From contig DCFZ01000049.1 in assembly GCA_002314455.1 (NCBI GenBank), forward strand, positions 30,362 through 94,361: a stretch of 64,000 nucleotides of DNA, given 5' to 3'. The notes under the pieces were generated by a model that saw only the letters and a list, made by a program, of their open reading frames with translations, did no database searches and had not been told where the DNA came from. The DNA comes from Lentisphaeria bacterium UBA1791. Its GTDB lineage: Bacteria > Verrucomicrobiota > Lentisphaeria > Victivallales > Victivallaceae. Every line of letters begins with the position of its first letter. The first letter of the stretch is position 1. Below, one piece after another: positions 9,023-53,347 of this stretch. A program made the position numbers and the translations under genes.

Positions 9023-9064
9023 GACGTTTTTCCCTTTGTTTTTTGAAACGGCGCAATACCCCTT

Positions 9065-9093
9065 AATATAATGCAGAAAAAGGCAAAATACAA
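9065..9093 (-). promoter_or_regulatory. Candidate promoter for the lipoprotein gene (minus strand: TTGTAT - 17 nt - TATATT)
   Basis: The reverse complement of 9088-9093 gives the -35 and of 9065-9070 gives the -10. It lies about 43 nt upstream of the ATG at 9022. Confidence 0.45.
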
Positions 9094-9133
9094 GAAGGCG
9101 GCGCAATGAATTCGGCGAGGTCGAAATGCGGAA

Positions 9134-19820: not shown

Positions 19821-19835
19821 CCAGGAGAAAAGAAA

Positions 19836-20066
19836 ATGGATGAATTGAGCAAAAAGATCACCGATCGTCTGGAAGAACTTCGCGCCTGTTTGCAGGCTGA
19901 CGGCGGAGATCTTGAGATTGTCGCCATCGAGGGCAAGGTCGTGCAGGTGAAACTGCGCGGCGCCTGCGGCGGTTGTCCGCACGCGACGATGACGATCAAA
20001 AATGGTCTTGAGCGCATCCTCCGCGAGGAGATCGACCCCGAGATCACGATCGAGCGGGTGCTGTAA
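19836..20066 (+). CDS. NifU-like (C-terminal NifU domain) Fe-S cluster protein
   Basis: 76 aa with the hallmark DGGDLEIV...V.V.L.GACGGCPHATMT.K.G.E..L. Confidence 0.85.
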   Translation: MDELSKKITDRLEELRACLQADGGDLEIVAIEGKVVQVKLRGACGGCPHATMTIKNGLERILREEIDPEITIERVL

Positions 20067-20078
20067 AAATCAGGAATC

Positions 20079-20105
20079 ATCTTGAAAGCAAATTGCCTTC
20101 AAGAT
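20079..20105 (+). terminator. Weak candidate terminator hairpin after the NifU-like gene
   Basis: An 8-bp stem ATCTTGAA/TTCAAGAT with an 11-nt loop. The following T tract is poor (TTCTG), so confidence is low. Confidence 0.3.
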
Positions 20106-20319
20106 TTCTGAAATGCGCCGAAGCATTTTTGCATCGGCTTGAAAAGCAAGCGGCAGGGCGCGTGAATCAAAATCATTGCGCACTGCCTTGTCTTTTAAGC
20201 AAATGCGACTTGTTCCGCGGTAGGTTTTGCGGATGCATTTGCGTTGCGGGGAGCACGGAAAGCGTACTTCGCGCGAAACGGGAAACGGAAAAACCTTTTT
20301 CATCTTCCCGTATTCTCAC

Positions 20320-20348
20320 TTGCAAAAGCGCATTTCCTGCGCTATATT
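20320..20348 (+). promoter_or_regulatory. Candidate promoter for rpsD (TTGCAA - 17 nt - TATATT)
   Basis: Hexamers at 20320-20325 and 20343-20348. This would give a leader of roughly 80 nt before rpsD. Confidence 0.5.
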
Positions 20349-20437
20349 AAATGAATGCAACTGGCATATCGGGCCCCATTTATGGCTTGACACCCGACGT
20401 GCTGTAACAAAAACATCCAAAAGGAAAGGGATTGGTT

Positions 20438-21043
20438 ATGTCAACCGCAAGTCAGGCGAAGCACAAGTTCTGTCGTCGTATTGGTAAGTGTCTCTGGAAT
20501 GATCCGACTTGTCCGAGTGTGAAGCGGCCCTACGCCGCCGGCCCGCACGGCAAAGGCAAGCGCGTGAAGCTTTCCACCTACGGCACCTTGTTGCTCGAAA
20601 AGCAGAAGCTCCGCAATTACTACGCGATCAGCGAGAAACAGCTCCAGATCGCTTTCGCCAAGGCGAAAGCCGGTGAAGGTCAGACCCACGAAAAACTTTT
20701 CCGCAGCCTCGAGCAGCGTTTGGATTCGCTGGTCTACCGCTGTGGTTTCGCGCCGACGATCTTCGCCGCGAAACAGTATGTCAATCACGGCCACATTCTC
20801 GTCGACGGCAAGCGCATCGACCGCGCCAGCTACGTTGTCCGCGAGGGGCAGGTGATCTCGATCAACGCCGAGAAGTCCCCGGCGATCGCCGAAGCCGCCA
20901 AAAAGGGCAATGCGACGATCCCCGCTTATATGGAAGTCGATCTCGACCACTTGACTGCGACCTTGGTGCGCGCTCCGCAGATCGATGAGGCCAATAGCGG
21001 TCTCTTCAACATTATGAGCGTCATCGAGTACTACGCACGGTAA
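20438..21043 (+). CDS. rpsD: 30S ribosomal protein S4
   Basis: ATG at 20438. S4 motifs: KLSTYG..LLEKQKLR..Y, LE.RLD..VYR.GFA.T...A+Q.V.HGHI.V.G.+.. (S4 RNA-binding domain). It appears monocistronic between its own promoter and terminator. Confidence 0.95.
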   Translation: MSTASQAKHKFCRRIGKCLWNDPTCPSVKRPYAAGPHGKGKRVKLSTYGTLLLEKQKLRNYYAISEKQLQIAFAKAKAGEGQTHEKLFRSLEQRLDSLVYRCGFAPTIFAAKQYVNHGHILVDGKRIDRASYVVREGQVISINAEKSPAIAEAAKKGNATIPAYMEVDLDHLTATLVRAPQIDEANSGLFNIMSVIEYYAR

Positions 21044-21066
21044 TTCTGTTATGGATACCGGAAAAA

Positions 21067-21107
21067 CTCCCGTTCTTTTCAGGGCGGGGGTTTTTTCGTT
21101 TTTTTAG
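21067..21107 (+). terminator. Rho-independent terminator of rpsD
   Basis: Stem CTCCCG/CGGGGG (extendable with A/T pairs), a 12-nt loop, then TTTTTTCGTTTTTTT. Confidence 0.65.
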
Positions 21108-21148
21108 GTAAATTTTTCATTTCAACCCCCAAAAAAGGAGAAACTTCC

Positions 21149-27744: not shown

Positions 27745-28521
27745 ATGGCGTGTATCCCGCTGGAAAAGCACTTGGCGAATTTTGCGGAATTTTACGCCTT
27801 TTATCCGCGGTTTCTCATCGCGTTCCGCGACCGGTTGCCGCAACTTTCGCTCGGCGAATTGCTCTGGCAAAAGAGTAATTTCTTTGTCATTCTGAAAGAG
27901 GGCAGCTGGGGATTGCAGACGATCCCCCCTTATCTGCAAAAGTTCCTCGACGCCCTCGATGCGCTTGATCGCCGCGACGATGCGGCGATCAACGCGCTCT
28001 TTGAAGAAAATCGGCAAATGTTTCAGGAGGTCGTCGCGGCGAATTATCCCGCTTCCCTTGTCCTGAAAGATTGCTATCGCCGGGGGGACTCCATTTGCTT
28101 TGACCGCAACAGCGTCAATCTGGATCACCCCGACTGGTGCCGGCTTCACCTTGAAAACGGCCGCCAGCCGGAATCGTTTTTGCACGACAAATTTTATTTT
28201 GCCGCCAATTTGCTGCGGGTGATCGACGAGGCAACGGCGTTCGCTCCGTTTCGCGAGATCGCAGTCTTTTCGTGGCTCAACAGCTACGAGGGATTCTTGC
28301 AGTTTTTCCCCGACGAATGGCGGCGCAACGTCGCGGAGATCGCCGATGAGCGCGACTTCCACCGCGATGGCGGTTTTCTCGGGCAACTGGTCAACCGCGA
28401 AGGCGGTTTGAATCGTGCCAACGCGGAATTCCTGTTGCAAAACGGACGCCTGAAATTTGCGACCAAGTGCTGTCACGCACCGATCGAAGCGGTGCGCGAT
28501 CACGCCAGAAAATTCCTCTGA
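27745..28521 (+). CDS. Hypothetical cytoplasmic protein (258 aa)
   Basis: The ATG is preceded by GGGGGGAAAGGA, 21 nt after the stop of the upstream gene. Composition is balanced, with no signal peptide and no recognised motif. Confidence 0.6.
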   Translation: MACIPLEKHLANFAEFYAFYPRFLIAFRDRLPQLSLGELLWQKSNFFVILKEGSWGLQTIPPYLQKFLDALDALDRRDDAAINALFEENRQMFQEVVAANYPASLVLKDCYRRGDSICFDRNSVNLDHPDWCRLHLENGRQPESFLHDKFYFAANLLRVIDEATAFAPFREIAVFSWLNSYEGFLQFFPDEWRRNVAEIADERDFHRDGGFLGQLVNREGGLNRANAEFLLQNGRLKFATKCCHAPIEAVRDHARKFL

Positions 28522-28587: not shown

Positions 28588-31404
28588 TTGCGGCGTAAAA
28601 AAGTGAAACGATCTTATCTGTTTTTTCTGGCGGCGATCCTCACGTTGACCATCGGTTGCGGCAAAAAAGCCCGATCGAAGGCGGCGACGGCGTATGTTGA
28701 TGCGTCAGGAAACGTGATCCATTGTGCCGCGACCGAGGAAGCGTTGCGCGCCGCGATCGAAACATCGCGCACGTCGGGCAAAAAGGAGATCGTCATTGCC
28801 GACGGCGTTCTGACGTTGTCGGCGCCGATTCTGCTGGATGAGCGCGATTGTAATTTGACGGTGCGCGGCAGCGGCAACACGATCTTGTCGGGCGGCGTCG
28901 ACGTAACGTTTCACGCCGTTGAAAACGAGAATTACTGGGCGGCGCAACTGCCGGATGGTCTGCCGGAGCCTTATCTGTTTTACGTTCCCGGTTCCGGCAG
29001 AAGAGAGCGCGCCGTCTTTCCCCGCAGCGACTGGCTGAAAAATCTCGACAACAGCGATCTCGTCTGGCTCGGCAAGCTCGACGGCGGATGGGATCGCCCC
29101 CCGACCCGCTACGAATTGACGCGCATGAGCGTCACGCCCGATGAATTGCCCGATTTCGAGCCGGCGGACGCCGACGTCGAGGTCGCGCAGAACCGCGAAG
29201 TTTCCGTTGTCCGCATTGCTTCATACGATCCCAATTTGTGGGAAATGACCTTTGCCGAACCCTTGACGCACCCGGTCGGCGCATCGGCGCGTCACGAATA
29301 CCGCATCCACAACATCGAGCCGGGCATGGAACCGGGCAGGTGGCGGTTTCACCGCGCGACGCGCGAGATCTATTACTTCCCGCAAGCAAATGAGCAACTT
29401 TCCGATTTCCACGCCGTCGTCGCGGTAGTCGAGCCGTTGTTGACGATCCGGCACGGTGAAAACATCACGCTTGCCGATCTCACGTTTTTTGCCGCCAACG
29501 CCGATCTGCGCCGCCGCGGTGCGCAGACGGGCGAAACTTCGGGCAGGGCGCTCCCCGCCGTGGAAATTGCCAACAGCTGCAAGATCACGCTGTCGCGCGT
29601 CGCACTGCGCGACGTCGCCGGTACGGCGGTCGAAGTAATCAAGAGTCGCGACGTCGCATTGAAATCGTGCACGATCGCCGATGTCGGCGATTACGGTGTA
29701 TATGGCGCGGATGTGCAGAACTTAACGGTGTGCGACAGCAAATTGTATGAGATCGATCATACGGCGATTCGTGCGTCGGGGCAGGGCAATCAATTTTTCA
29801 ACAACGAAATTTCGCAGATCAATTACAGCGGGATTTCCGCTTCCGGCGATGCGGAAATAAGGGGAAATCTCCTTTCCGGGACGATGCGGTTGCGCAACGA
29901 CGGCGGCGCGATCGCGCTCACGGGCGGAAAGCATGCAAAAGTTTATGGCAACAAAGTCGTGGATCTGCCCGCTCTCGGTTTGCGCCACGCGATCCACATC
30001 GGCGAAACGACGGAATTTGCCGTGATTGAAAAAAATGAGTTTACAAGTTTTTTCCCCGTGATGGCAAACTGTGCGCGCGACGTCGTTTTGCGCGGGAATA
30101 CCTTTACCTATCCCAAAGAGATGATCTTCGACCTCGTCAATTCCGATCGCTTCACGTTGGAAAAAAACGTCATAAAGGCGCCCAAAATCATTTTCAGCGC
30201 GCCCGAGAACGCCTGGAAAAAATCGGACAATCTCATCGAAGGCGCCGTCGAGGAGCGGGTGAAGCCGCGCGGCTTTTTCTTCTTTTACGATGAAGAAAAC
30301 ACCTTGTGCTGTAAGCCTGAACTCAAGGGCAAACATATTGATCCGCTCAAGTGGCAACGCATCGTCTGCATGGGCGACAGCATCACCGCGGCGGGGCCGA
30401 TGATCTATGAACTGCAACTTTATCTTGCGTGCAAATTCCCGCAACGCCACATCGAGGTTTTCAACGCGGGCGTCGCGGGCGAGACTGCCGCCTGCGGCTG
30501 GGAGCGCCTGGAAAAAGTGCTCGCGCTGAAGCCCGACGCAGTGATTCTTTCATACGGGATGAACGACGTCGGACGCTCGGATTACCGCGACTTGTGGCCC
30601 GAAAGCGTCGAGCAGGCGAAGCGGCGCGAACGCGGCATCGAAAGTTGTGAAACCTATCTAAAAAAAATCGTCGACAAATTGCAAGCTGACGGCGTCGACG
30701 TCGTCGTCCTGCCGCCTTTCCCCTACGACGAATACGGTACGCGCCCCGAGCCCGACGACAATTTCGTTTTCTGCAACAGCGTCGCACTGGAAAAGATCGC
30801 GCTCTTTTGCCACGCAAGTTTCGGCGGGAAAATTCCGTTGCCGCTCACGCGTACGGCGCTTTGCCGGCTCTACGCGCATTACCCCGAATTGCGCATTGCG
30901 CCGGATCGGGTGCACCCCGACGAACGCGGCTACTGGCTGATCGTCGACGAAATCGTCCACGAACTTTACGACCGCATCCCGGCAGAGGAGCCGCTGCCTT
31001 ATCCGCTGACGGAAAAGATGGTGGAGTTTTCCCGTTTGCCGCCCGTTCCCGGCGTCGGCAAAAATGCGCAGTTGCATCCGTTGCGCTATCTGGGCAAAAA
31101 CGGCGCCGTCGATGCGCCGACGCAGATTTTGCGGGAAAAAATGAAAAAACTTGCTGACGCCGAAGGAATCATCAATACGATGGCGTGGTTCGACCTGCAG
31201 GCGACGAGCCGCGGCATTGATCCCGCCGACTTTGTCCGGACTGATGCGCGGCTGCAAACGCTTGCCCCCCGTTGGGGATTGGTCAAGACCTATGAAAAAT
31301 ACCGCATTTGGCGCACCCGGCGTGCGGAACTCGCCGCCGAAGCGGCAGAAGCACGCGCGGATTTTTTCCGCACGGTCGATGAATTGCACAAAAAGGAGAA
31401 GTGA
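28588..31404 (+). CDS. Lipoprotein with right-handed parallel beta-helix (PbH1) repeats and a C-terminal SGNH/GDSL hydrolase domain
   Basis: Lipobox LTIGC. Beta-helix repeats: NSCKITLSRVALRDVAGTAVEV.KSRDVALKSCTIADVG..GVYG...QNLTV.DSKLYEI. SGNH blocks: IVCMGDSITAAG, FNAGVAGET, ILSYGMNDVG, and a late DxxH-like block (RVHPDERGY). The start is ambiguous: TTG 28588 or GTG 28603. Confidence 0.8.
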   Translation: MRRKKVKRSYLFFLAAILTLTIGCGKKARSKAATAYVDASGNVIHCAATEEALRAAIETSRTSGKKEIVIADGVLTLSAPILLDERDCNLTVRGSGNTILSGGVDVTFHAVENENYWAAQLPDGLPEPYLFYVPGSGRRERAVFPRSDWLKNLDNSDLVWLGKLDGGWDRPPTRYELTRMSVTPDELPDFEPADADVEVAQNREVSVVRIASYDPNLWEMTFAEPLTHPVGASARHEYRIHNIEPGMEPGRWRFHRATREIYYFPQANEQLSDFHAVVAVVEPLLTIRHGENITLADLTFFAANADLRRRGAQTGETSGRALPAVEIANSCKITLSRVALRDVAGTAVEVIKSRDVALKSCTIADVGDYGVYGADVQNLTVCDSKLYEIDHTAIRASGQGNQFFNNEISQINYSGISASGDAEIRGNLLSGTMRLRNDGGAIALTGGKHAKVYGNKVVDLPALGLRHAIHIGETTEFAVIEKNEFTSFFPVMANCARDVVLRGNTFTYPKEMIFDLVNSDRFTLEKNVIKAPKIIFSAPENAWKKSDNLIEGAVEERVKPRGFFFFYDEENTLCCKPELKGKHIDPLKWQRIVCMGDSITAAGPMIYELQLYLACKFPQRHIEVFNAGVAGETAACGWERLEKVLALKPDAVILSYGMNDVGRSDYRDLWPESVEQAKRRERGIESCETYLKKIVDKLQADGVDVVVLPPFPYDEYGTRPEPDDNFVFCNSVALEKIALFCHASFGGKIPLPLTRTALCRLYAHYPELRIAPDRVHPDERGYWLIVDEIVHELYDRIPAEEPLPYPLTEKMVEFSRLPPVPGVGKNAQLHPLRYLGKNGAVDAPTQILREKMKKLADAEGIINTMAWFDLQATSRGIDPADFVRTDARLQTLAPRWGLVKTYEKYRIWRTRRAELAAEAAEARADFFRTVDELHKKEK

Positions 31405-34195: not shown

Positions 34196-34204
34196 GGGGT
34201 GAGA

Positions 34205-34450
34205 ATGGTCTTCTCAAGTTATTTGTTTTTGTTTTTCTTTCTGCCGACGGTGCTGGCGTGTTATTACGTCAGCCCGAAAAAGTGGAAACATCTTGTCCTG
34301 ACGCTTTTCAGCTATTTCTTTTACGCTTGGGCAAATCCCTATTTTTGTATTCTGATGCTCTTTAATACGAGCGTCGATTATACAAATGGGCGGTTGATGG
34401 AAAAATTCCCGGCGCGGAAAAAACTTTTCGTCGCGTTTTCCATCATTTGA
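34205..34450 (+). pseudogene. 5' fragment (about 81 codons) of an MBOAT-family membrane O-acyltransferase (AlgI/DltB-like), truncated
   Basis: MVFSSYLFLFFFLPTVLACYYVSPKKWKHLVLTLFSYFFYAWANPYFCILMLFNTSVDYTNGRLME is a typical MBOAT N-terminus. The frame stops at 34448-34450 after about 81 aa, whereas MBOATs are about 450-500 aa. No continuation is seen in any frame. Confidence 0.75.
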
Positions 34451-34586: not shown

Positions 34587-34774
34587 TTATAGAAATTTAC
34601 CGAAAGCACTTCCGGTTGGGCGGTCGTGCCCGATTTGAAAAAGTGAGCTCAAATTCACGTTTTTCTTTTTGGAAAATAAAAAATATCGTTTTGTAAGTTG
34701 TTGACGTGCAGGCAATTTCTGCGTTCTTACAGACGCGTATTGTAAATTTTTGCGAAAAAGTTGTATAATCTCAC

Positions 34775-34812
34775 GGGAAAGACTTGACCTTTCCCTTTTT
34801 TGGTGCTATTAT
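34775..34812 (+). promoter_or_regulatory. Promoter of the giant gene (TTGACC - 17 nt - TATTAT with TG extended -10), embedded in a terminator-like hairpin
   Basis: The -35 is at 34784-34789 and the -10 at 34807-34812. The perfect 7-bp inverted repeat GGGAAAG (34775-34781) / CTTTCCC (34789-34795) encloses the -35 and is followed by TTTTTT (34796-34801). A second possible promoter (TTGTAA - 18 nt - TATAAT, -10 at 34764-34769) lies just upstream. Confidence 0.55.
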
Positions 34813-34899
34813 ACTATAGAACAAATAGGCTACCCTTGTCAAATTTTTAAAAATTTTTTATATTCAGCCATAAAACAACACCAAAACAAGGAGCAAATC

Positions 34900-37800
34900 A
34901 TGGCGATCAGTTATTATTCAACTCAATGGATCGGTTTGGCAACGAATGCGGTCGTCGCGGTTCCCGGCGGCACTGCCGTCATCGGCGTCGATGCCTTCAG
35001 CGACTACGCGCAAGCGAAAGCGGCGGGCGATGTCGTGCTATGCGATGTTTTCTGCAGCAATGACTGGGCGGATGCATCCGGTACCGTCGACGTCGTCATC
35101 GAAGGCGACACTTATACGCTGACGGTCGGTGAACAGGCTTTCGGTACCTTTGCCGCGGCGGCGAATCAGGTCGCGACCAATTCCTACGGCGGCGTGTATG
35201 TCTATACGAGTGCGACGCCGGTCGCCGCCAGTATCTATTACTCCGGTGCGTGGGATCAGCTTGAGGATTATACGGTGGTTTTCGTCGGCAGCACCGTTTG
35301 GGATGCCACGGGCGCGCAGGTCTCGACGACGGGCGGCACGGCGATCATCGGCGTCAACGCCTTCGGAACCAAGAGCGAAGCGAGCGCCAAAGCGGCTTCT
35401 TATACCGGCGCATCGATCACGACGGGCTCGAGCGACATTTATCTGCACAGCGACTGGGTGTCGGGTGTTGTCACAGCGGGCGACACGGTTGCCGTTACGC
35501 TCGCCGACGGTTCGGTCGTCACGGCGGTCTACGGCGGCAACGCCGGAATTATGAGCGGCACGACGGCTGCCGCCTACCGTACCAGCATTGAAAATATCGG
35601 GGTCACCGCGCGTACCAAAAATCAGACGGTCTATTTCGTCGGCGGCAGTATTGCGCAGGAGGATAGTACCAGCAACGGCGGCGACTACACCTGGGGCGCC
35701 AAGACGGTTGTCTACAACACTTATATTCAGCGCATCAGCGCCGGTACGCCTTATACGGTTGCTTACACGCTTTCGCCGGAACTTTATCTGCTTGAAGGTG
35801 CGCGCGTGGGCGTCGTCTACGCCGCGGGGTATGCCGGCGGCGACAAGGCTTACGTCTACATCGCCAAAGACGCCTACGCAAGCAGCGTGATTTCGGCGCA
35901 GAGCAACGGCGAGAGGTCGGTCGGCATCGTTGAAGTCGACGTCGACGGCGGTACGGTCGGCACCGTTCAGGGGGCCAACCAGAAGATCACTGAAGAGATG
36001 AACTTCACGTTGCGCAATAATGCCGTGGGTACGCTCTTCCGCGTCGGCGTCGATTCCGGCGACGATTTCAGCCGTCTTTCCTGCGACGTCAATTTCACCA
36101 TCGTCGACAGTTCTCTTTCAAGCGGCATCACGGTTTCGCACCGCGACTTCGGTCGAAACGGTTGGGCAGGTAGTTTTAACGTGGCGATCCAGGACGTCAA
36201 CATCACGATCACCAATTCCTATGTCCAAGCGATCTCCAACGGTACGAGCGCGTGGTCGTTCAAGAGCTACACCGTTACCCTTGACGGCGGTTCGATACAG
36301 ACTTTGACGCCGCGCGTCAATTCGGGCGACTACTACGCCAACTACTGTAACGTTACGGGCGGCACGGCGACGATCACAGGCGGTACGTTCCGCGCGATGG
36401 TATCCGACGCCGGGACGGGCGACAACACCGAGACCAACTGGATTGATTCCGACGTGCGCTTCCTGACGACGACGAGCACGGTCGTCACCTACAATAACGA
36501 CGGCACGATCACCGTCCGAAACGGTGTTTTCTACAACGCGAACGGCGCGGCAAACCAGAAGTGGATCGTCGGCGGCACGGCGACTTTCGTCGGCGGCACG
36601 CACAATCTCGTGACTCTTTCCGTCGTCGGCGATGAAGCTTCGACCGTCGATACGATGTACGGCGTCGAGGCGATCACGATTGACGCGACGGCGGAACTTA
36701 TTGCCAAGACAACTTTCAGTTACAACGTGCCGATCACGATCGATGCAACGGGCTTTGAATTCAGCGGACTTGATACGCGCAAGGTCGTTTTGACGACGCC
36801 GGGAACCAGTGCGTTGACGGGCAAGATCACCGTCCTTGAGAACGGCACAACATCGCATAATTACAATTATGAACGCAAAGGCAAAAATCTCTATTTGACC
36901 TATACCGCAGTGACGAGCATGGCGTGGCGGACGCGCAAAGCGGGCGAGACGGTCTCGGTCGGCGGCAACACCTATACGATCGGCGTCGACGCCTTTGCCT
37001 CAGTTGCGGACGCCAAGGCGGCGGGGTATGCCGGTGCGCGTTCGATGGATATTTTCGTCAACAGCGCGTGGGAGGGCACGACGGCGGGCGAAACGGTCTA
37101 CGCCGTTCTCTTTGACGGCAGCACCGTTGCGGCGACCTACGGCGAAAACGCCTTTTCGACGATCACGGCGGGCGGGACAGCCGCGGCAAGTGCAAAATAC
37201 AACCTCTATGTCGTCGACGGCACTTACGGCAACTATTACGGTTGCGGCCGCCCGCTGGTTTTTGCCAAAGGCTACATTCCCAACATCTATGCGGTACAGC
37301 AGGCGACTACGACTGCAGAATTATACATCCTTGGCGGCACGGTCAGCAGCGCCCGCGCCTTTTCTGGTGCGGTGACCGACGGCTACCTCTATATGGAGGG
37401 CGGCACTTCCACCAGCTCCATCCAGCCCGGCAGCGCCGCCTGTGCGACGACGACGATGGAATTCGTCGGCTCGACGATCACGGGCGTTTTCGGCAACAAC
37501 GCTCTTAGCGTCAGCAGTGCCTACAGCTACATCGTGCGCGACCATTCGGTCGTAATCGGCGACGTTTGGGTCGGTACCAATTCCGGCTCCAATATGAGCA
37601 ACTTCCGCGGCGACATCAACATCACCGTCGACAACAGCCAGGTCACGGGCGGCGTCAAGTTGAGCACTCGTTCGACTGCCTTCTGGGCGGGCGCCTACTC
37701 GATGACGATCCAAAACATCAATATCAGCGTTGCGGGCGGCACGGTCGGCTCGTTTTCGACGGGCGGCAGTACGCCGTGGAACGCCGTCAAGAGTCTCACT

Positions 37801-40800
37801 GTCACCCTCGACAGCAGTACGGTCACGACCAACAGCACTGATTATTCGCAGATCACGACCGAGATCACCGGCGGTACGGCGACCTTTGTTTCGGGCGGCA
37901 CCATCGTCACCGTCGCCGGCGGCGGCGGTTCCATTTCGGGCGTGGTCGAAGTGCTTGAAGCGGGGGCGCAGGTCGAGGGCAACGTCCGCTGGGTCGGCGG
38001 CGTTGCAACCTACAATGCAGACGGCTCGGTGACGATCGTCGGCAATGGTTACGGTACGAAATCCAGCACTTCCGCGTTGCTTTACATCGGCAATAAATAC
38101 TACAATTTGCAGCAGGGCGAGTCCGTTACGGTCACGGGCGGCAGTTATGCGCGCAAGACGCTGCACGTTACGGGCGGCACCTCGGAAACGGGGACGGTCA
38201 AAGGATTTTTGGACGCCGTCATCGACGCCGACAGTTACCTCTATATGACGGGCAACGGCCTTTATCAAAACATCATCGTCGACGTGACGGGCTACACCGG
38301 CGGAAACCGGGAAGTCGCCCACTTCCCGTCGGTCTACACCGACTGGAACCTGCTGACGGTCGAAAACGGCACGACCTCCAAACGCTACGACGCCGTCAAG
38401 AGCGGTTATACGATCCAGTTGAAAAAGCGCTACGGTTACTTCGCCGGCGCATGGCGCGATCTGGAAACGGGCGACAAGGTCGTCGTCAACGGCAACACCC
38501 TCACGATCGGCACTTCCGCCTTTACGACCTATGCGGCGATGATGGATTACGTTGGCGGCACCGTTGAACAGAGCAATGTCGGCGATTTCTTCCTCAACGA
38601 CACCTGGGTTGCGGGCAACACCGTTGCCGTGGCGATCAACGATGAAAACATCAATTTCGTCGTCAACGACACCAACGCCTTCAACACCGCCAGCGCGGCG
38701 TATGCCGCCTATGCGGCGGCGGCGTTTGCCAACGGCAGTTTCACCGTCCAATCCGGTACGTTTACGCTCGACGGCGCCGTTTCGGTCTATGATCTCAATC
38801 TGGATGCCGCCGCCAACTTGACGACGGGTACGCTTACAGTCAACGGTTCGCTTACGATCGATGCGACGAATTACACACTCGGTGACAACGAACGCAAACT
38901 TCTCATTTCCGCCGATCAGATCGTTGCGGGGAATTACGTTCTCAATCAGGCGGGAAGCGATTACTATCTCTCGCTTGAAGCGGGCAATCTCTATCTTACG
39001 CACGCGCCCGTCTATTACACCGAACTCTGGGCGGATATGAGCGCCGGCGACATTGTCACCGTCAACGGCAACAGTTATACAATCGGCGTCAACGCCTTTG
39101 CCAACTACGACGACGCCCGCACAAAGGCGCTGGCGACGGGCGGCGCGGTGCGCGATCTCGACACCTATTTCAGCAGTGCTTGGAGTGCCAATCAACTTGC
39201 GACGATCTACGCGCGCGGCGGCAGTTACACGGGGCTCGTCGGCAATGCAGCAAAGGGGTGGATCAACGCCTATACGACGCGCGATATCGCGACTCAGGCT
39301 CATACGAGCGAATATCCCGATGGTGGCATCGTCGTCACCGGGCTGACTTTCACCGGTCGTACGCAACTGGAAACGACCTACGCGACCCCGATTATCTACA
39401 AGGGATTGGTCTCGACCAAGGGCGGCGATCAATTCACAATGCTCTTTGATGGGACAGCGGCGGGCACAGCCAAGGGCGGTTACGCCGTGATCGGCGAAAA
39501 CTCGGTCATTACCACGCTCGGATTGGCGCCCCGAGACGCCTCCTTCGTGCAGGGCGACGTCGTTGTCAAGGTGGTTGACAACGCCCGGATCGGCGAACTT
39601 CTGATCGGCGGTCTTTACGACGGCAGACTCGGCAATCCCAATGAAACGACCGGCTCCCTTACGACCAACGTAACCGTCACCGTCAAAGGCGCGACGGTGA
39701 CGAGTATTTACGGTAGCGGCTACTCCAGCCCCACTTTCGCCAACGTGACGATCAATGCGATCAATACCAAAGGTTCGCGAATCTATGGTGCCGGCGCGCT
39801 GGAGTGCGATATGCTCCAAGGCGACATGACGGTCAATCTGACGAGTTCGACCTACGGTTCGCTCATCAGCTGGTACAACAGCAACGTCGGTGCCGCCTTC
39901 GGCATGAAAGGGCAGTTGCGCGTCAACATCGTCGGCGGTTCCAACTGCGTCACCGACGGGATTGTGCTCCGCAATACCGACACGCTCACCATCAAGGCGG
40001 ACGCCTACTTGTATACCCGCAGCATCACCAACTATGCGACCGACGAGACCCGCTACGCCGGCACGATCAGTATCGACGCAACGGACTATACGGGTGGCAC
40101 GCGGATGTTCTTCCAGACCCGGCTCGGCGGCGACTACGCACTTGCCGTTGCCGGCAACGATCAGTACAAGATTACAAGAACCGCCATTGACGACGGCTGG
40201 GGGTATTACCTGCAGCAGAAGATTGCCTACTATACAAGCGACTGGAAAGACCTTGCCCCCGATACCGTGGTTGTCGCGGGCGGCGAAACCGTCAAGATCG
40301 GCGAATACGCTTTCACGACCTACGCCGCGGCGCAATCGACCGGCTACAAGACGAGCGTCGGTGACTTTTTCGCCAACAATACGTGGACTGTCGGCGGCAC
40401 GATCAGCGAAACCATCAACGGCGAAACGCTCTATTTCGTCGTCGACCAGGCGAATGCCTTTACCTCCGCCGCGGCGGCGTATGCCGCCTATAAAGAGGCG
40501 GGCTTCGTCGACGGCAGTTTTACCGTCGAATCGGGCACGCACACGATCGGCGAAGACGTCAGTGTGAAACACCTGACGATCGGCGGCGATTTGACTGCCG
40601 ACAACGTGACGGCGACGGCGGATCTTACGCTCGGCGCCAATGCGAAACTTACGGCGGATGCGATCAGTGCTCCGGCAATCAGCATCGGCAACGGCGCGCA
40701 GGTCACAGCGACCGGCACGATCACAGCGACTTCCACGGTCACGCTCGGCGAAAATGCGCAACTTTCGGCGGCGAGCATTTCGACGGCGGATCTTGCCATT

Positions 40801-43800
40801 TCAAGCGGCGCTTCCATCACGGTAACGGGCGCAATCTCGGCGACCAATGCGATCACGGTCGACGCCAATGCGACGATCCAGGCGGCGAGCATTTTGACGG
40901 CGGATTTCTCGTTCAGCCACACCGACGCCATCGCGCTGACGGGCGCGTTGACGGCGACCGGCACGATCACGATCGATGCGACCGGCGCCGATCTGGCGCC
41001 GGCTCAAAGCAAACTCCTCGTCGCAGCGAACTCGATCGCGGCGGGAAGTTACGTCGTCCTCGAAAACGGCACGGCGTCGAGCAACTACGTCGCCTGCGTC
41101 AAGGCGGACGGGCTCTACTTGCAGGAAAAGAACGTCAACGTCGTCAACACGGCGTGGCTCGGACTTGCCGATGGCACGGTCGTTCATACGGCATACGGCG
41201 ACAAGACGCTCGGCACCGACGCCTTTGCCACCTTTGCGGTGGGCGTCAATGCGGGCAAGGCGCTCAATACGCTCGTTTCGATGGACGCGAACTACAATAC
41301 GGCGTGGGCGGCGGGCGACACGGTGACGCTTGCCACCGTCGGCGAAACGCCCGTTACGGCAATGGTTGCGGCGGGCAACGCCTATTATCTCTATCAGAAC
41401 AACGCCTACACGACGAGAGCGAACGCCATTGCGAATAAAAACCAATACGCGATCGCCCACGTCTACGGCGCGACGACGGGGCAGAGCGCTGCCACCTATA
41501 CGACTTACGACGGGCAGAGCCACAGCGGTATCGTTTATGAAAATGCCCAGTTGGGCGACGTCACCGTCGGCATCGGCGATATTTACGTCATTGGTTCGAC
41601 CTTTGCCACCAGAATGCGCGGTTACGGTAATGGTGCAATCACAAGTGGCGATCAGATGAATTACTACCTTGACAACAGCTATGTCAAGACCTTCACCAAT
41701 TTGGGTTCAAGTTACGGCGCTTCGCTTTCGATCGACATCAACTCTTACAAGCTGACGACGCCGGACGGCTGGTGGAATTTCGACACCAACCTCGTCGCTG
41801 TCAACGGTTCGACGATTGCGAGCGTCAACCCATACGGGCGCGGCGGCGGCGCCAACGCCTGGCTCGACGTCCACGGCAGTTTCAATCTGACGGTCGACCG
41901 GAGCTACGTCGGCGCCATCGCCGTCGGGGACGAGTGGGGCACCAACGACTTCATGTGGGATGAGGGCTTCAACATCGTCATCAAAAACGGCGGTCGCATT
42001 GCGACACTCCGCTTCTCCAACTGCGGCGCCAACAACGTCACGCTGGATGGCGGCACGACCGGTTCGGTTGCGTTTGCCGCCAACCGCGCAGCACGCACCG
42101 TTACCGGGAGCGGCAACACCTATAGTCGCGCGGCGGTTTCGGCGGGCGCCGTTACGTGGAGCGTCACGGGTGGCAGACAATCCGTCATCATGTGCGATTT
42201 TACGTTGCGAGCCGCCGATGCGACCTACATCGGCAGGACGAATTCCGATGCGCTTACGGTCAGCGGAAATTCCACTTCGTTGCAGTTCACGGCCGCCGTG
42301 ACCAACAACGGTTCGATCACAGTCACCGGCGCGGCGGCGCTGATAGGCAATTCGACGATCACCAACAGCGGTTCGATCACGATCACCGGGGCGTCCGAAC
42401 TTTCGAGCGGATCGACGTTTACCAACACGGGATCAATCACGATCGCCGTCGGTTCGACGATGACGCTTTCGGGTAATTTGACGACGACCGGCAGTTTCAC
42501 GATTGACGCGACGGGTTTTGTCCTTGATCCGGGCGTCTATTTCATCAAGGTCGTCGACGCCAAAAACACGCTCTCGGTCAGCGACTTCACGCTGACTGGC
42601 GGCGCCTCCGGGATGTCGATTTTCGTCAAAGACGGCGACCTCTACTACGGCGAAGCGCCGGTCAAGATCACGGTGGCAGTCGCCGGCATTGCGCAGGGTG
42701 AAACAGTTGTCATCGGCGGCAACGCCTACACCGTCGGCACCGATATTTTCGCTTCTGCGGCGGCGGCACTCGAAGCCGGACATCACAACATCGAATCGCT
42801 CGACACTTACGTGAACGATGCGTGGAGCGATCTTGCCGCGGGCGAAAAGGTCGTCGTCGACGGCTACACGGCGACGATCGGAACCGACGCCTTTGCGGCG
42901 GTTAACAGCACCAGCATTGCCAAGGCGAGCGCACTCGGCGGCGTTTTCCGCGTGTCGGGCAATGCCGCCGCCGCATGCACGATTCGGGAAGTCGACACCC
43001 GCTACAGTGGTGTATCGACCATTACCGGCAATTTCTTCGGCAACAGCACTTCCGGCGTGGTCAGCAATGCGAAACTTCTGATCGACGGCGACACGGTCAC
43101 AACGCTGGGAAATACGATCGTGGTCGTCGGCGCCGCTACGGTCAATAACGCCGATATTACGCTCAACAACGCCTCGTTGAACCGCATTTGGGGCGTTCAG
43201 ACGGGCGCGACGGCGTTGACCGGCACGCTGACGCTCAACGTCACCGGTTCGACGGTCGGCTGCTTTACGCTCGGCGGCAACGAATCCGGCTGGAGCGGCA
43301 TCACCGCATTTGCGGGCAACGCCGATGTGAAATTCACAAATTCGATTGTCGGCGTTATCGGTCACGGCTACCGCAACTTTGGCGCCGCAACTGACGGCAA
43401 TTCGGGTGCAAACGTCAAGGATTACACAATCACGCTGGCCAACAGCAAAGTCGGTGCGATCGGTACCGGCAACGGCACAATCGGCGCAGTTGAGTACGAT
43501 ACCAACACCTGGATCGGCACTACGAGCTTCACGGTCAATATGGCGGGATCGACCGTCACGACCATCGAGGGCGGACGCACGCTGACGACGACCTTGGGCG
43601 GCACCGCCGTGCTCACGGGCGGCACCCACACCGGCGAATCCTTCACCGGCACCAAGTTCTACAACATGGGCGGTGCCGAGGTCTTTAACGACGACGGCAC
43701 CGTCACCTACCGGGGCGGCACCCACTTCAACGAGCAGAATCAAGTCATCACGGGCGGTACAATGACGATCACGGGCGGCACGACGATGCGCCGCACCGTC

Positions 43801-46800
43801 AACATCACGAGCGGCAGCAACTACGTCGGCACTCTTTCCAACATAGACGCCTTGAACATTTCGGTCGGCGATTACCTCAAGGTCGGCGGTACGCTGAGCG
43901 CAACGCTCAACGTGACAGTCGACGCGCGCGGCTACGAGTTTGCACCCGAGACCTACCGTACCGCGGTGATTACTTCCGCCAATTCGACTTTTAACAGCAA
44001 GTTCACCTACTTGCAGGATTCCGGCGACAAAAACGTCTTTGTCATCAAGGGCGACACTCTCTACTACGGCGAAAGCGACACTGTTGTCAGCCGCGCGTGG
44101 GTCGATCGCCAAACGGGCGATACCGTCACCTGGAAGAGCAACACCTACACGATCGGCACCGACGCCTTTGCCTACGCGAACGACGCGACGGCGGCGAACC
44201 GCCACTACATCGTCAACGCCGATACCTACGTCTATCTCGGTGCGAGTGCGGGCGACGAGGTGACGATCGACGGTCTCAACTACACCGTCTACAGCGCTTC
44301 CGGCGCCGGTCGCGAAGTCTTCACGGCGGCGAGCGATGCGGCGACGCAGCTCAATAGCATTCAGGGCAAGCGCGTTGTGATGCTGGGCGGTACGGGGGCT
44401 TCCCGCGAGTGGTTCGGCGGCGCCAGCGCTTACATCGAAAATTGTACGCATTACTGGGTGGATGGCGGCGGTATCATCGGCTCATCCGGGAGTGCGACCG
44501 AAAGCACCAGCGTCGTTTTCGCAAGCGGTGCGACCATCGGTCAGTATTGGAGCACGCACGGCGCCAATGTGACCAATGCCTACGCAGAAGTCCAAAGCGG
44601 CGCGTATGTTGACCGCTTGTCCGTCAGTTATTCCGGCGCTGTCGTGACCAATGCCGATTACCGCGTATTTGCGGGCGGCGTGGTCGGTGTGTTCGCCGGT
44701 GACGGCGGTCTCGGTACAGGCGGTACAATTCGCTATACCGTTACCGGCGGTACGGTGAGAGGTCACCTCAATACCGGCACCAGTTCCAAGGACAACACCG
44801 GCGTCAAAGGCAACATCGTCGTCACCTTGACCGGCGCGACGGTCGGCGGTGGTCTCCTCGGCGGTGCCGGCGGCGATTACGTGACATCGGGCGACTACAC
44901 CTACACGATCACCGACAGCTATATCGGCGGCACCTTTGGCTACACCGGTACGGGGGGCGCCGACATGGGAAGCATGACGATGGCGAATTTCAAAGCCACC
45001 GTCAAGGATTCAAGGATCGGCGCCATGTCTTTCGGCCGCGTTTCGACGACGGCGGGCGCCTTTGACATCACACTTGACAACGCGACGATCGGCGACGCCA
45101 ACCTCAGCCTGACGGCGCCCAACAGTTCCAGCAGTCTCAAGGGGGTCAACGCGACGATCAAAAATATGACGCGTGCGACCGGCAACGTGGTCGTGATCGA
45201 TCCGGAATTCGGCACCAAGGTGACGGTCGACGGCGACATTGATCTTTCGTTGCAGAATCTCAACGTCACGCAGGGGTGTGTTTCCGTCACGGGCGGCGCG
45301 GCGGGATCGACGATCAACGGCGACATCACCGTCAACGCGACCAATGTCGTGATCGGTACGAGTTTGTATTTGCTCAACGGCAACGCGGCGGGCAATATCT
45401 CGGTGACGGGCAACGCGACGCTGAACTTCAACGGCGTTTCGATTGCCAGCGGCATTTACTTCTCGACCAATCACGATGCAGCGACGGCGTTCACGGGGAC
45501 GCGCAGCATCAACTTTACGGGCGGCACCAACACCATCGGTTGTATCAACGAGGCTGACGCGGCGGTCACGCTCAACGTCGGTGCGGTGCTTCTCCTGACG
45601 GATAATTCCAAAGTCACCAACGCGATCACGGTCGACGCTTCGACTTGCGATTACAGTCAGGCGCAGTACCTCCTTATTTCGGGCAATGCTCCGGTCACCA
45701 ACAACATCACCGTCGTCAACGACAATCCGAGCAAAGAGTACGAAATCGTCAAGAGCGGCAATAACGTCTACTACCAGCAAAAGCCGGTGTACTTCAACAT
45801 CGCGTGGAGCGGCTTGACGGGGACGGTCGAATATCAGGGCAAGACGCTGACAATCGGCAAGGATGCCTTTGCAACCTATGCCGAAGCGGGTACGAGCGGC
45901 AGAGCGTTTATCTACGCGGCGGAAACCTACCTCAACAACACCTACAACGACACCGATCCAATCGTGGTCGACGGCTACACCGCGACTTACGACACCGATG
46001 CGTTCAACACGATTGCGAAGGCGGTCGAAGCGGCTTCGACGGCAGGCAATTCGCTCCGTGTGACGGGGTGGACGAATGGCAAGCTTCTTAACATAAACGG
46101 TATTAAAAACGTCTATATCAGCGAAAACCACACAGCGACGACGACGACGGTGAAAGATGACACCGCCGCGATTGCGAGTTTGAGTGTTTCCGTCAACGAT
46201 TCCAATTGCAACGTTTTTACGGCGGTCGCGGCGGGCAGCGTGACGGGGGCGCTCAACGTGACGGCGGACAACTTGCACACCACCGACGCACTCTACATTC
46301 TCACCGGAACGACGAGCGCCGGCAACGTCAACGTGTCGGTTGGTGGCGGCAGTTACTTGCAAAAGGGACTCTATGTTGTCAACAGCAAAGCGTCAGTAAC
46401 GGATGATGTGACGATCACCTTGGGCAACTGCGAAATCTACCGCAAGGGTATTCAGATCAACGATGCGACCGTGACTGGCGGTTCGGCGACAGTCGGCGGC
46501 GCCAAGACTATCACATTGGAGGAAAAATGTACCGCGACCGTTTCCGCGATCACGGCGAGTTTCGACACCGTTACGATCAAAGCCGGCGCAACGCTGAACT
46601 TTGGCAAGGGGCTTGCCGATGATTGGAAAGATTCCTATCTTTTCGCGCTCAACAACCTCGTCAACAACGGTACGTTCAACTACAACGCCACGATCGGTCA
46701 GAATGCCTACAAGGCAGTGGCGATCAACGTCACTGGCAACGCGATCACGTCGACGGTCGGCAACGTCATCTTCACCAATGGCGGGACGACCTATGCGGCG

Positions 46801-51775: not shown

Positions 51776-53347
51776 TTATGGTTCATCTTCTTCGTCATCT
51801 TCGCGCAGCGGATCCTCAATCCGGCGAGAGATTCCCGTCGACATACTCTTGTCGGCGGGCATCCACGGCACATCAGGCGTAACGACTTCCGCTTCGGCGG
51901 TAACGATGACGTAGGTTCTTTCCTTGATGCTGGTCACGGTGCTGAAAAGGTATTTGATCACGGGGATGCGGCAGAGGAAGGGAATGCCGATTGTCTGCTC
52001 GACGTCGTTTTCCTTTTCGTAGATGGCGAGCACTTTTTCCTGCCCGAAACCGAGTGACGTGGCGCCGCAGATCAGCGTGGAGCTTTCCAGTTCCGAGCCG
52101 GTGTTGCCGCGTTCGACGATCGCCTTGAAAAAGATCGAATAGTCAAAGAGCACGCCGCCCTGCTTGGGAAGTTCATTTTGCATCTTGTAGTATTCCGGCG
52201 TCGAGGGGATGAAGCCGTTGGCGTCGACGGCGGCTTTGTCACTGCCGAGACAGATGAAAGGATTGACGATTTTTGCCTCAAGATTCGGCGGATTGGAGTG
52301 TTTTTCGCCATCTTCGTCTTCGGTGAAGCTTTTGCCGATGAACGAGCGGCCGAGGGTGTTTTTCTGAATGTTCTGGTATTCCGGCTGCATCGAAATGCGA
52401 TAGATGAAAGGAGCGGTATCCGGTTGCTTTTCCTGAATTTTTTTCAGCAGCGCATATTCTTCCTCGTTGGCGACGGGAGTGTTGATCATCACCATGCTCG
52501 CGTGGGCAACCGCCGTCGCGGTACCCGACTGTTGCAGACAGCGGATGAAGCTCATATCAAACTGCGGCGCGGTAAAGAAGCCGCCCAATCCCCAGCTGGT
52601 GGTGAAATTGAACGCATGTTGCGCCAATTGGCCGAGCATTTCGTTGAGTACCATTTCTCCCGCATTGTAGCCGGCGGAAAACAAATTGACGCCGGGGCCG
52701 TTTTTCCACGCGAGATAGTCGAAGCCCCAGTCCTTGAGGTCGCTGTCGCGCATCTGATAGTAGTTGATGCGCACTTGCACTTGCGGCACCGGGCGGTCGA
52801 GCCGTTCGACGAAGCTCAACGTGCGCTTGGCGGCGTCGCTCTGATCGCGCCAGAAAATCGTGTTGGTCTCGGTGTTGACGTAGGCGGCTCCGCTGGAACT
52901 TGCGATCGTCGCATTGATGATGTTGCTGAAATCGACGGCGGCGCGGTAGCGCGGCGAATAGGCGATTCGGGTCAATCCCGTGCCGCGGATCGGCGACGTG
53001 CCGGGTTTGCCGGGGCGGTCAAGCGCAAGGATGATCTCATCGACGTAGGGAATGAAATCGCTCCCCGTTGAAACGAGGAGCGCGCCGGTGCCGTTATTCT
53101 GGTCGGTGACGCGGCGTACATTGGAATACGTGTTGTAGCGTTTGATCGCGGAATTGACAAAGGGAAGCATCTCTTCGGCGGAAACGTATTTCAGCACATA
53201 GAGCTTGCTCTCAAAGTGGATCTGGGCGTCGTCCTGCACGAGGTGGATCGTACGCGAACTCTCGTCGGCGGCGAGCGCCGCGCCGCCGAGAAACAGCGCG
53301 CTGCACGATACCGCCAACAACGGTTTGGGTATGAAAGAAACTTTCAT
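51776..53347 (-). CDS. Secretin-family outer-membrane channel protein (paralog B, 523 aa)
   Basis: Signal peptide ...LGGAALA/AD. LYVLKYVSAEEMLPFVNSAI, ALLVSTG, PQVQVRINYYQMRDSDLKDWGFDYLAW. C-terminal block: LAIYEKENDVEQTIGIPFLCRIPVIKYLFSTVTSIKERTYVIVTAEAE. It is clearly paralogous to the downstream gene (aligned blocks LDRP..., ...FSAG). Confidence 0.85.
   Translation of the reverse strand: MKVSFIPKPLLAVSCSALFLGGAALAADESSRTIHLVQDDAQIHFESKLYVLKYVSAEEMLPFVNSAIKRYNTYSNVRRVTDQNNGTGALLVSTGSDFIPYVDEIILALDRPGKPGTSPIRGTGLTRIAYSPRYRAAVDFSNIINATIASSSGAAYVNTETNTIFWRDQSDAAKRTLSFVERLDRPVPQVQVRINYYQMRDSDLKDWGFDYLAWKNGPGVNLFSAGYNAGEMVLNEMLGQLAQHAFNFTTSWGLGGFFTAPQFDMSFIRCLQQSGTATAVAHASMVMINTPVANEEEYALLKKIQEKQPDTAPFIYRISMQPEYQNIQKNTLGRSFIGKSFTEDEDGEKHSNPPNLEAKIVNPFICLGSDKAAVDANGFIPSTPEYYKMQNELPKQGGVLFDYSIFFKAIVERGNTGSELESSTLICGATSLGFGQEKVLAIYEKENDVEQTIGIPFLCRIPVIKYLFSTVTSIKERTYVIVTAEAEVVTPDVPWMPADKSMSTGISRRIEDPLREDDEEDEP

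Follow-up and report, generated by a model that had tools for sequence, protein, structure and literature searches.

The 64-kb window analyzed here (the whole stretch of 64,000 nucleotides (nt) from Lentisphaeria bacterium UBA1791, a gut bacterium of Victivallaceae type) contains a giant gene at 34900..48306 on the + strand, encoding a modular protein of 4,468 amino acids (aa), and directly downstream of it a gene for a 43-aa peptide. We propose that the two form a chromosomal operon whose products would be a giant chain of solenoid modules, exported without the Sec pathway as a surface fiber or adhesin, and a conserved peptide partner. We put the probability of this reading at about 0.5. The evidence comes from the repeat architecture of the protein, a family of relatives centered on Lentisphaeria, the linked peptide gene, and a short C-terminal ending that recurs among long relatives.

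Giant gene and expression signals

The initial annotation of this stretch, made from the sequence alone, described an uninterrupted 13.4-kb open reading frame (ORF) of 4468 aa with a good Shine-Dalgarno (SD) sequence and ATG, and our analysis agreed. The frame is open from 34750 to 48306, with the ATG at 34900 and a TAA stop at 48304-48306. The SD sequence, AAGGAG, was read from the sequence 6 nt 5' of the ATG (34888..34893, + strand). Homologs of the giant protein share the start MA.(I/V)YYS..W (e.g., MADVYYSAAW and MANIYYSTQW), and the ATG at 34900 is supported because they begin likewise. The extreme composition described at first was also recovered: Thr (13.5%), Gly (12.8%), Ala (11.3%), Val (9.6%), Ser (8.2%), and Asn (6.8%) together make up 62% of the protein, Cys accounts for 0.5% (22 residues), and the protein is acidic, with a pI of 4.5. 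Public records include an identical protein (cluster representative P0001), encoded on an NCBI contig of 101 kb. We have high confidence that the gene is real and that its architecture is as described below.

A promoter belonging to the gene itself had also been claimed, and a candidate for it was found. Several promoter-like sites lie upstream of the gene; a consensus scan ranked best a sigma-70-type candidate at 34784..34812 (+), TTGACC-17-TATTAT, which has a TG upstream and lies some 90 nt 5' of the ATG. We favor this site because of comparative support. The arrangement TTGAC(C/A)/TTGAA/TTGCA-N17-TGCTA(T/A)T.. is also present upstream of the homologous giant genes in loci L009, L003, and L001, and the -35/N17/TGCTATTAT of the candidate, or a close variant, recurs 5' of each of them. 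A terminator-like hairpin (GGGAAAG..CTTTCCC plus a T-run) at 34775-34795 (+) overlaps the -35 of this candidate and is downstream of a second promoter-like site (34740-34769); the hairpin could have a role in ending upstream transcription or in regulation. An Rfam search upstream of the giant gene found no riboswitch or leader RNA.

Repeat architecture

The protein had been described as modular, built around about 13 copies of a recurrent W..TIGxDAF motif. All 13 cores were found within a few nt of the positions first listed, at 34978, 35344, 36976, 38503, 39079, 40294, 41206, 42730, 42874, 44149, 45850, 45988, and 46885, and two or three degenerate copies (including those at about 35120 and 37135) are present in addition. 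A strict core pattern gave 12 matches compared to 0.12 expected (2,000 shuffles, maximum 2). Comparison of the protein with itself by tile-against-tile BLAST identified the repeated unit as a junction of about 115 aa. The first part of the junction is the closing element ITIDATG(Y/F)...ENGT.S..Y....LY(L/Y), which had been noticed before as the end of each module; it is real and forms one unit with the W motif that follows it, W.DL..G.TV...GNTYTIGTDAFATYA.A..AG. There are 8 good copies of the junction, 26-39% identical when aligned to the first copy, and they split the protein into approximately 10 modules of 190-570 aa each. Extra W units occur as four in tandem at the N-terminus and as others after junctions 1, 6, and 8.

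The four tandem N-terminal W-motif units (34900..35619, +) cover aa 1-51, 50-103, ~112-177, and ~179-240, as delimited by hidden Markov model (HMM) stretches and by DSSP of an AlphaFold2 (AF2) model. Each is predicted to be a small beta-beta-beta-alpha unit, and unit one begins immediately after Met1. The coordinates of the junction units, all on the + strand, rest on tile BLAST and HMM stretches. Junction unit 1 is at 36733..37074 (aa 612-725) and consists of ITIDATGF..ENGT..LYL plus W..G..V..TIGVDAF. It is followed by unit 2 at 38263..38607 (aa 1122-1236), unit 3 at 38845..39186 (aa 1316-1429), unit 4 at 40060..40389 (aa 1721-1830), and unit 5 at 40960..41307 (aa 2021-2136). Unit 6 (aa 2531-2643) and a second tandem W unit (aa 2637-2671) occupy 42490..42912, unit 7 occupies 43909..44241 (aa 3004-3114), and unit 8 (aa 3574-3683) and a second W unit (YTATYDTDAF, to about aa 3730) occupy 45619..46089. 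The remaining conserved part is the C-terminal region (46687..48303, +; aa 3930-4468), with a degenerate W unit, predicted solenoid coils, and a terminal beta-rich subdomain. This region is 30-56% identical to the C-termini of P0005, P0008, P0006, P0010, P0003, and P0009, and the protein ends ...YKFYLDTTDNALKVAKLA.

A Lentisphaeria-centered family

The motif had been thought to fit no known family, and database searches bore this out. The giant protein had one sub-threshold chance match in Pfam and no match in NCBIfam, PHROGs, or PADLOC; PDB sequence-profile searches with the junction and the C-terminal region returned nothing meaningful; and tblastn against plasmid and phage collections found no match. 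No match to a characterized adhesin, autotransporter, or RTX family emerged. A GTDB genome scan with one module gave no relative. A word index, queried with a single module and with the junction alignment, gave no match and missed even the query protein, so that it is insensitive here.

Relatives were recovered by exhaustive hmmsearch with a junction profile against 1.84 billion representatives, which returned 66 proteins, the query included, at a threshold of E<=1e-3; 23 of them reached E<=1e-10. The family representatives are mostly giant (1.3-5.7 kaa, 3-12 junction copies); those with strong matches have 1.6-4.7 kaa and 4-12 junction copies at 300-600 aa spacing. All members with a named source are annotated as "hypothetical protein" and come from Victivallaceae or Lentisphaeria metagenome-assembled genomes (MAGs) (horse feces and others). 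Several paralogs were found within single genomes. By profile similarity, the giant protein is a member of an unnamed, Lentisphaeria-centered family.

The junction units are the conserved parts of these proteins. Most 200-aa tiles of the solenoid cores match no relative, even inside the family. The best-matching homolog shifts along the protein, from P0067/P0007 at the N-terminal end, to P0005, P0006, and P0002 in the middle, to P0005/P0008 at the C-terminal end. This change of best homolog points to a mosaic that arose as modules were exchanged. The modules would be shuffled when paralogs recombine with one another, and the hypervariable solenoid cores would supply specificity.

One branch of relatives and one paralog differ in their domain content. 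The proteins P0011-P0016, P0023, P0025, P0026, P0029, P0031, P0032, and P0041 (loci L013 and L014) make up a second branch of Lentisphaeria giants, which reach 5,711 aa and have AIDA-like and FG-GAP repeats and endings of the form ...W..(I/L)A. What this branch has in common with the window protein is limited to the W unit and the [LI]A at the terminus, and the two of its loci that were examined showed no small peptide ORF downstream. In the paralog P0002, the C-terminal third (L001, approximately 18700-23296) is an array of Ig-like repeats of about 100 aa (DUF7743, CHB_HEX_C) plus a different repeat region.

Predicted structure

An AF2 model of aa 1-760, built with three homologs and one paralogous module, had a predicted local distance difference test (pLDDT) score of 71 and a predicted template modeling score (pTM) of 0.64. 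This model begins with four small beta-beta-beta-alpha units and continues through an extended, periodic series of short strands to the closing element and, after it, the W units that come next. The model of aa 3930-4468, built with six homologs, had a pLDDT of 82 and a pTM of 0.85, and consists of coils of approximately 32-37 residues (a long and a short strand with GG turns) and then a terminal subdomain that is rich in beta structure and has ALKVAK as its last strand. Foldseek searches of PDB and BFVD returned mostly beta-helix proteins as top matches, none of them significant, including Ag43, pertactin, PfbA, VacA p55, PL6/PL3 lyases, tailspikes, MpAFP, ice-binding proteins, and a PATR phage protein.

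These models support, with good confidence, a beta-solenoid-like fold class, as had been suggested from the sequence; no specific structural relative was found by this route. Profiles of the Beta_helix, NosD, and Pectate_lyase types had no match at E<=1 in the giant protein. The neighboring gene at 28588-31404 does match Beta_helix, showing that the profile search can detect that superfamily. In the proposed arrangement, each module would open with 1 to 4 copies of the beta-beta-beta-alpha unit of about 45 aa (W..G..V..TIGxDAF..A), which is probably the N-terminal cap or entry of the solenoid, and modules 1 to 8 would close with an element of about 60 aa (ITIDATGY..ENGT..LYL).

Small peptide gene

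The small ORF (48322..48453, +; MKMDRLDYVKPELLEFSYAVQGEESCFIDCGGDSVCPDVGDDI) lies 15 nt downstream of the giant gene, has its own GAAGGAG SD, and encodes an acidic peptide of 43 aa with three Cys; in the public record it is called from Met3 (P0089). It is followed by an intrinsic-terminator-like hairpin with a T-run (48468..48503, +; hairpin at 48468-48496, 12 pairs, 7 GC). The initial annotation had assigned a clean terminator to the giant gene; the hairpin and T-run are real, but they follow the small ORF, which had been overlooked. From this arrangement, the giant gene and the small ORF are predicted to be co-transcribed as a two-gene operon ended by that terminator.

A profile search showed that the peptide belongs to a family of acidic tri-Cys peptides of 40-50 aa, with 34 clusters, all unnamed. 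The consensus is M..FDY.KPELLDF....A.G..SC(F/Y)(I/V)DCTSDELC.GDDEI, with SCFIDCTSDELC.GDDEI as its core part. Homologous ORFs of 41-46 aa stand directly after P0005 (L002), P0008 (L003/L004/L007), P0010 (L005), P0009 (L009), and P0003 (L010). The L003/L004/L007 locus has two tandem copies after P0008, and in L006 the peptide ORF comes after a contig-end fragment ending ...YKFYKEDNALKVAKLA. The coordinates of these ORFs are 19056-19193 in L002, 14445-14576 and 14810-14941 in L003, 13611-13739 in L005, 113-238 in L006, 1741-1872 in L008, 13242-13382 in L009, and 13270-13395 in L010. Among more distant members of the window protein's C-terminal group, the small acidic ORF downstream is divergent and retains an N-terminal YEAP motif, as seen after P0024 in L011 (MEEKKYEAPAAEEL...) and after P0065 in L012 (MFEYEAPQIIEV...). 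Counting these, a small ORF was present after 8 of 8 examined giant genes of the window's C-terminal group and after 0 of 3 from other C-terminal groups (P0002, P0012, and P0071). P0002 has no KLA-type C-terminal domain, ends ...ICVLK, and has no peptide gene after it; that it lacks both fits a link of the peptide to one C-terminal domain type. Neither of two JGI metagenome scans for the peptide gave a match, whether run with an alignment or with degenerate DNA encoding DYEKPELL(D/E)F as the pattern.

Some features of the peptide resemble those of precursors of ribosomally synthesized peptides with post-translational modifications (RiPPs). All listed copies have a YxxPxL-type motif, Y-x-(K/A/I)-P-x-(L/M/I), which in the window peptide is at -17 to -12 from Ser25; the lasso leader motif YxxPxL has been reported at that leader position (PMC10368454). 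In the core, SC(F/Y)(I/V)DCTSDELCxGDDEI, each of the three Cys has an Asp at +3 (Cys-x2-Asp), and CX3D is the crosslink motif of the ranthipeptide precursor PapA (PMC9413430). The peptide also had a weak NCBIfam match to StsA sactipeptide (E 0.019, 14.9 bits compared to a cut-off of 42). The "core" is as conserved as the "leader." A lasso peptide was considered and rejected: the motif is present, but the Tyr-to-core spacing varies from 17 to 21 among the peptides, there is no Thr at -2, and no lasso B or C genes were found in the window or L002-L010. Stop-codon readthrough joining the giant and small ORFs was also rejected. The two are in frame in the window and L005 and out of frame in L002 and L009, so the match of frames is coincidental.

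We conclude that the peptide appears to be a conserved partner of one C-terminal domain type and place it in no RiPP class. Our confidence regarding its function is low; the acidic tri-Cys peptide resembles a RiPP precursor, and its candidate roles include those of a modified peptide and of a binding partner.

Two other observations were made beside the peptide genes. Homologous signal-peptide proteins of 420-460 aa with weak Peptidase_C39_2 / PA2778-like matches are encoded in L009 (4487-5776), L010 (4079-5350), and L008 (77-1462, minus strand); in L009 and L010 these genes are just upstream of the giant genes, and the window has no homolog. In L011 (16807-19732), P0024 (3,582 aa) is followed by a divergent 32-aa acidic ORF, MEEKKYEAPAAEELDMSVYVGGNEDSGTGDEP, and then four genes, which are ScmC/HPr-kinase-like, PqqD/ScmD-like, signal-peptidase-I-like, and NTP_transf_5, a RiPP-type cassette without a radical SAM gene.

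C-terminal ending and proposed export

The N-terminus of the giant protein, MAISYYSTQWIGLATNAVVAVPGG, has no basic n-region. No 19-residue window exceeds a Kyte-Doolittle hydropathy of 1.6 (maximum 1.51), consistent with the lack of a signal peptide and of a transmembrane (TM) segment and with the earlier judgment that the N-terminus is not a signal peptide. An extracytoplasmic life is nevertheless argued by three lines of evidence. First, the W unit is also found in proteins with Sec or lipoprotein signals (P0018, P0033, P0035, P0044, P0045, and P0062). Second, relatives carry surface-type domains above Pfam cut-offs, namely AIDA stalk repeats and FG-GAP in P0012 and DUF7743/CHB_HEX_C Ig-like domains in P0002. 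Third, a composition rich in T/G/A/V/S/N and poor in Cys is like that of secreted beta-helical proteins.

The extreme C-terminus, ALKVAKLA-COOH (48280..48303, +), is an instance of a family-wide ending, hydrophobic(-5)..[LI]A-COOH. The [LI]A-COOH ending, with a hydrophobic residue at -5, was found in 30 of 46 long relatives, compared to a chance of approximately 1% estimated from residue frequencies (roughly 0.11 x 0.11). The last 120 aa of the long relatives fall into six groups without mutual BLAST similarity, yet the ending is kept across them. The initial annotation was correct that the C-terminus is not a known sorting signal, but it overlooked this conserved feature. Such retention of a short linear feature in domains that are otherwise unrelated is how a recognition signal would behave, and the ending may be an unrecognized sorting signal. 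To our knowledge, no known sorting system uses an [LI]A-COOH ending. The nearest analogy would be the C-terminal signal of the type I secretion system (T1SS).

Taken together, these data suggest that the giant protein leaves the cytoplasm without a Sec signal, by means of information at its conserved C-terminus, and forms a long surface fiber for adhesion or surface structure. Export without Sec would also suit the W motif that begins right behind Met1, the pI of 4.5, and the low Cys content. We hold the predicted export and the adhesin role with moderate confidence and the route with low confidence; a type-I-like route would be the most plausible.

Several observations weigh against this proposal. 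None of the Foldseek matches was significant (E>=0.01, and 0.07-5 for the top-ranked beta-helix proteins; TM-score <=0.3, with multi-domain models searched whole), and the term beta-solenoid is based on strand periodicity in DSSP and on the kind of protein that ranks highest. RTX nonapeptide repeats are absent from the giant protein, with a single isolated GG.G.D match at aa 3321 (attributed to chance) and no HemolysinCabind. No T1SS genes (a set of ABC, membrane fusion protein (MFP), and TolC-like genes) were found in the window or in the flanks of 11 homologous loci (5-10 kb on each side, as far as the contigs reached), although a single ABC exporter gene stands alone in L001. In the loci examined, secretion genes are not conserved beside family members. 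A link of the giant gene to a secretin pair near the operon was rejected, the pair being absent from the other loci examined. A protein that stays in the cytoplasm would lack a signal peptide just as well. As for the peptide, the copy in L008 has no upstream giant gene and sits beside a secreted Peptidase_C39_2-like gene; no maturase adjoins the Cys-type peptide copies, and no radical SAM gene was seen in any locus.

A bolder version of the proposal is that the giant solenoids of Lentisphaeria use an undescribed pathway of export or surface assembly that reads the C-terminal signal, with the RiPP-like tri-Cys peptide serving one branch. The peptide might then be post-translationally modified or bind the C-terminal domain. 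This version is tentative, and we consider it possible but doubtful; if true, it would mean a new sorting signal and, for giant surface proteins, small partner peptides of a new class.

Alternative explanations

The protein could instead be a T1SS giant adhesin or S-layer protein of the class of LapA, SiiE, MpIBP, and RsaA, exported C-terminus first by an ABC-MFP-TolC system encoded elsewhere and retained at its N-terminus. Its pI of 4.5, very low Cys content, lack of a signal peptide, conserved hydrophobic extreme C-terminus, and conserved domain at the very N-terminus would all suit such a protein, and RsaA and MpAFP are among the weak Foldseek matches. We consider this explanation unlikely. 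Besides the missing RTX repeats, no BIg/cadherin-like or other Pfam/NCBIfam match was found; T1SS genes are absent from the window and the 11 homologous loci, apart from the lone exporter gene mentioned above; and the N-terminal unit recurs inside the protein and thus is no module reserved for retention.

A multi-catalytic polysaccharide-active enzyme, that is, a string of pectate-lyase-fold lyase, hydrolase, or epimerase modules used on glycans by a gut bacterium that degrades polysaccharides, is quite unlikely. The top Foldseek matches did include PL6 and PL3 lyases, alginate epimerase, phage depolymerases, and GH55; a Beta_helix+GDSL esterase gene and a protein with a weak, sub-threshold AlgX-like match are nearby; and the paralog P0002 has a CHB_HEX_C domain. 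However, all of the structural matches are non-significant, and neither Pfam nor NCBIfam identified a catalytic family. The solenoid cores are the least conserved parts of the protein, which fits variable binding surfaces better than conserved active sites.

Another scenario is a structural protein of the cytoplasm or the interior of the envelope that is never exported, whose [LI]A ending is structural or resembles a proteolytic tag. The absence of a signal peptide, of a TM segment, and of conserved secretion genes nearby is what such a protein would show. We nonetheless regard this scenario as distinctly improbable, given the W unit in lipoprotein- and Sec-signal proteins, the relatives with AIDA, FG-GAP, and Ig-like (CHB_HEX_C) surface-type domains, and a composition typical of secreted beta-helical proteins.

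We disfavor, as very improbable, a polymorphic toxin delivery protein (CdiA/FHA- or Rhs-like) with the small ORF as its immunity gene. Its appeal is the conserved arrangement of a giant beta-helical protein with a small ORF directly downstream. The protein lacks a Sec signal, a two-partner secretion (TPS) domain, and VENN or Rhs motifs, and there is no TpsB/CdiB gene. Moreover, the C-terminal 540 aa are among the best-conserved parts (46-56% identity to P0005 and P0008), with no variable tip, and the 43-aa peptide is highly conserved (34 clusters) and very small for an immunity protein. Finally, an assembly artifact or non-coding open frame is scarcely credible even for a repetitive giant gene from a MAG, a kind of gene prone to misassembly, since 4,468 sense codons at 57% GC are beyond chance, the internal DNA repeats are short (<=100 nt) and divergent (<=85% identical), which makes assembly collapse unlikely, and relatives in independent assemblies show the same junction architecture, most of those examined also with the peptide gene.

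Genomic context

The window is ordinary chromosome, with RNase R, gyrA, folP-like, DisA-type cyclase, rpsD, PFOR, htpG, and tRNA genes, and this housekeeping context led us to reject a prophage or plasmid origin. The upstream neighbors of the operon are a Beta_helix+GDSL protein (28588-31404), an aldose epimerase, and the protein with the AlgX-like match; downstream come genes for an HD protein and a MarR-like regulator and, on the opposite strand, two secretin genes. No neighbor recurs at homologous loci except the small ORF. The two secretin-family genes (Secretin + Secretin_N), 1.3 kb downstream of the operon, lie side by side on the minus strand at 49616-51757 and 51776-53347, and no GspE/F-type genes were seen in the window.

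After the AlgX-like gene there is a hydrophobic 83-aa ORF at 34199-34450 (+; MVFSSYLFLFFFLPTVLACYYVSPKKWKHL...) with no match in Pfam and PDB searches. We take it, as an impression, to be the N-terminus of an MBOAT/AlgI O-acyltransferase cut short before the promoter region, which would suggest a rearrangement. Sizeable ORFs (258-927 aa) without a Pfam match are present at 24940-27723, 27745-28521, 6956-9106 (minus), 59207-60466 (minus), and 62267-63283 (minus). The pair of 927 aa and 258 aa among them sits between PFOR and the Beta_helix+GDSL gene.

Significance and comparison with known systems

The Lentisphaerota, including Victivallaceae, are common but little-studied gut and sediment bacteria whose largest genes are unannotated. 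The W..TIGxDAF unit and the ITIDATGY..LYL closing element are now defined as two repeats for which neither Pfam nor NCBIfam has an entry. The conserved free-carboxyl ending and the strictly linked peptide gene of 40-50 aa lift the finding above one more giant adhesin. If the ending is a sorting signal, the surface proteome of the phylum would become predictable. Should the peptide turn out to be a modified RiPP or a factor in assembly, its gene would be unusual in being linked to the giant gene of a structural protein and not to that of its maturase. If neither holds, the result would be one more lineage-specific family of beta-helical adhesins, useful for annotation and unsurprising.

Autotransporter adhesins of the type V secretion system (AIDA-I, Ag43, and pertactin) are likewise long, T/G/A/V/S/N-rich, Cys-poor beta-solenoid surface proteins. 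Their passengers were the most frequent class among the top Foldseek matches, and the distant relative P0012 has Pfam AIDA stalk repeats. Unlike them, the giant protein has no Sec signal, no C-terminal beta-barrel translocator (PF03797), and no Pfam AIDA, Pertactin, or PATR matches, and where an autotransporter passenger is a single solenoid, it would be a chain of about 10 separately capped ones. The T1SS giant adhesins and S-layer proteins (LapA, SiiE, MpIBP, and RsaA) are alike in being giant, acidic, and Cys-poor, with a conserved N-terminal domain and no N-terminal signal peptide. They carry functional information at the extreme C-terminus, to which we liken the ending of the giant protein. 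In contrast to them, the giant protein has no RTX repeats and no BIg domains, T1SS genes were not found beside it, and the repeat unit described here is absent from Pfam.

Pectate-lyase-fold enzymes and phage tailspike depolymerases have the predicted right-handed solenoid-like fold class in common with the giant protein. A segment of the W unit, ..AF.(T/S)(I/L)..A(V/L)..A..GD.., clearest in P0033 (YTVGMNAFSSIQDALKAAQDGDTI), resembles the N-terminal cap motif PF.TIQ.A..AA.PGDTI of many pectate-lyase-fold proteins, which we take as a lead only. Unlike these enzymes, the giant protein gave no significant sequence or structure match and no catalytic residues were identified, and its context is not that of a phage. 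Two-partner secretion proteins (FHA and CdiA) also combine a giant beta-helix with a small ORF directly downstream. They differ in having a TPS domain (Haemagg_act), Fil_haemagg repeats, a signal peptide, and a TpsB/Omp85-type neighbor, none of which was found here; in the window operon the C-terminus and the peptide are conserved and not polymorphic.

Metagenome-derived giant proteins of Omnitrophota have been reported with large unannotated beta-rich regions, near type II-like secretion loci, and with small genes downstream (bioRxiv 10.1101/2023.11.21.568195). The window likewise has secretins 1.3 kb from the operon, but the secretin neighborhood is not conserved in the family of the window protein, and the Omnitrophota giants belong to another phylum and have other domain content (SecA-like, C39, and TM regions). 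The small ORF, for its part, is comparable to RiPP precursors (lasso YxxPxL, and ranthipeptide Cys-X3-Asp, e.g., freyrasin) in its leader-like motif and its Cys/Asp core. Unlike RiPP clusters as usually organized, the constant neighbor of this peptide is a giant structural gene.

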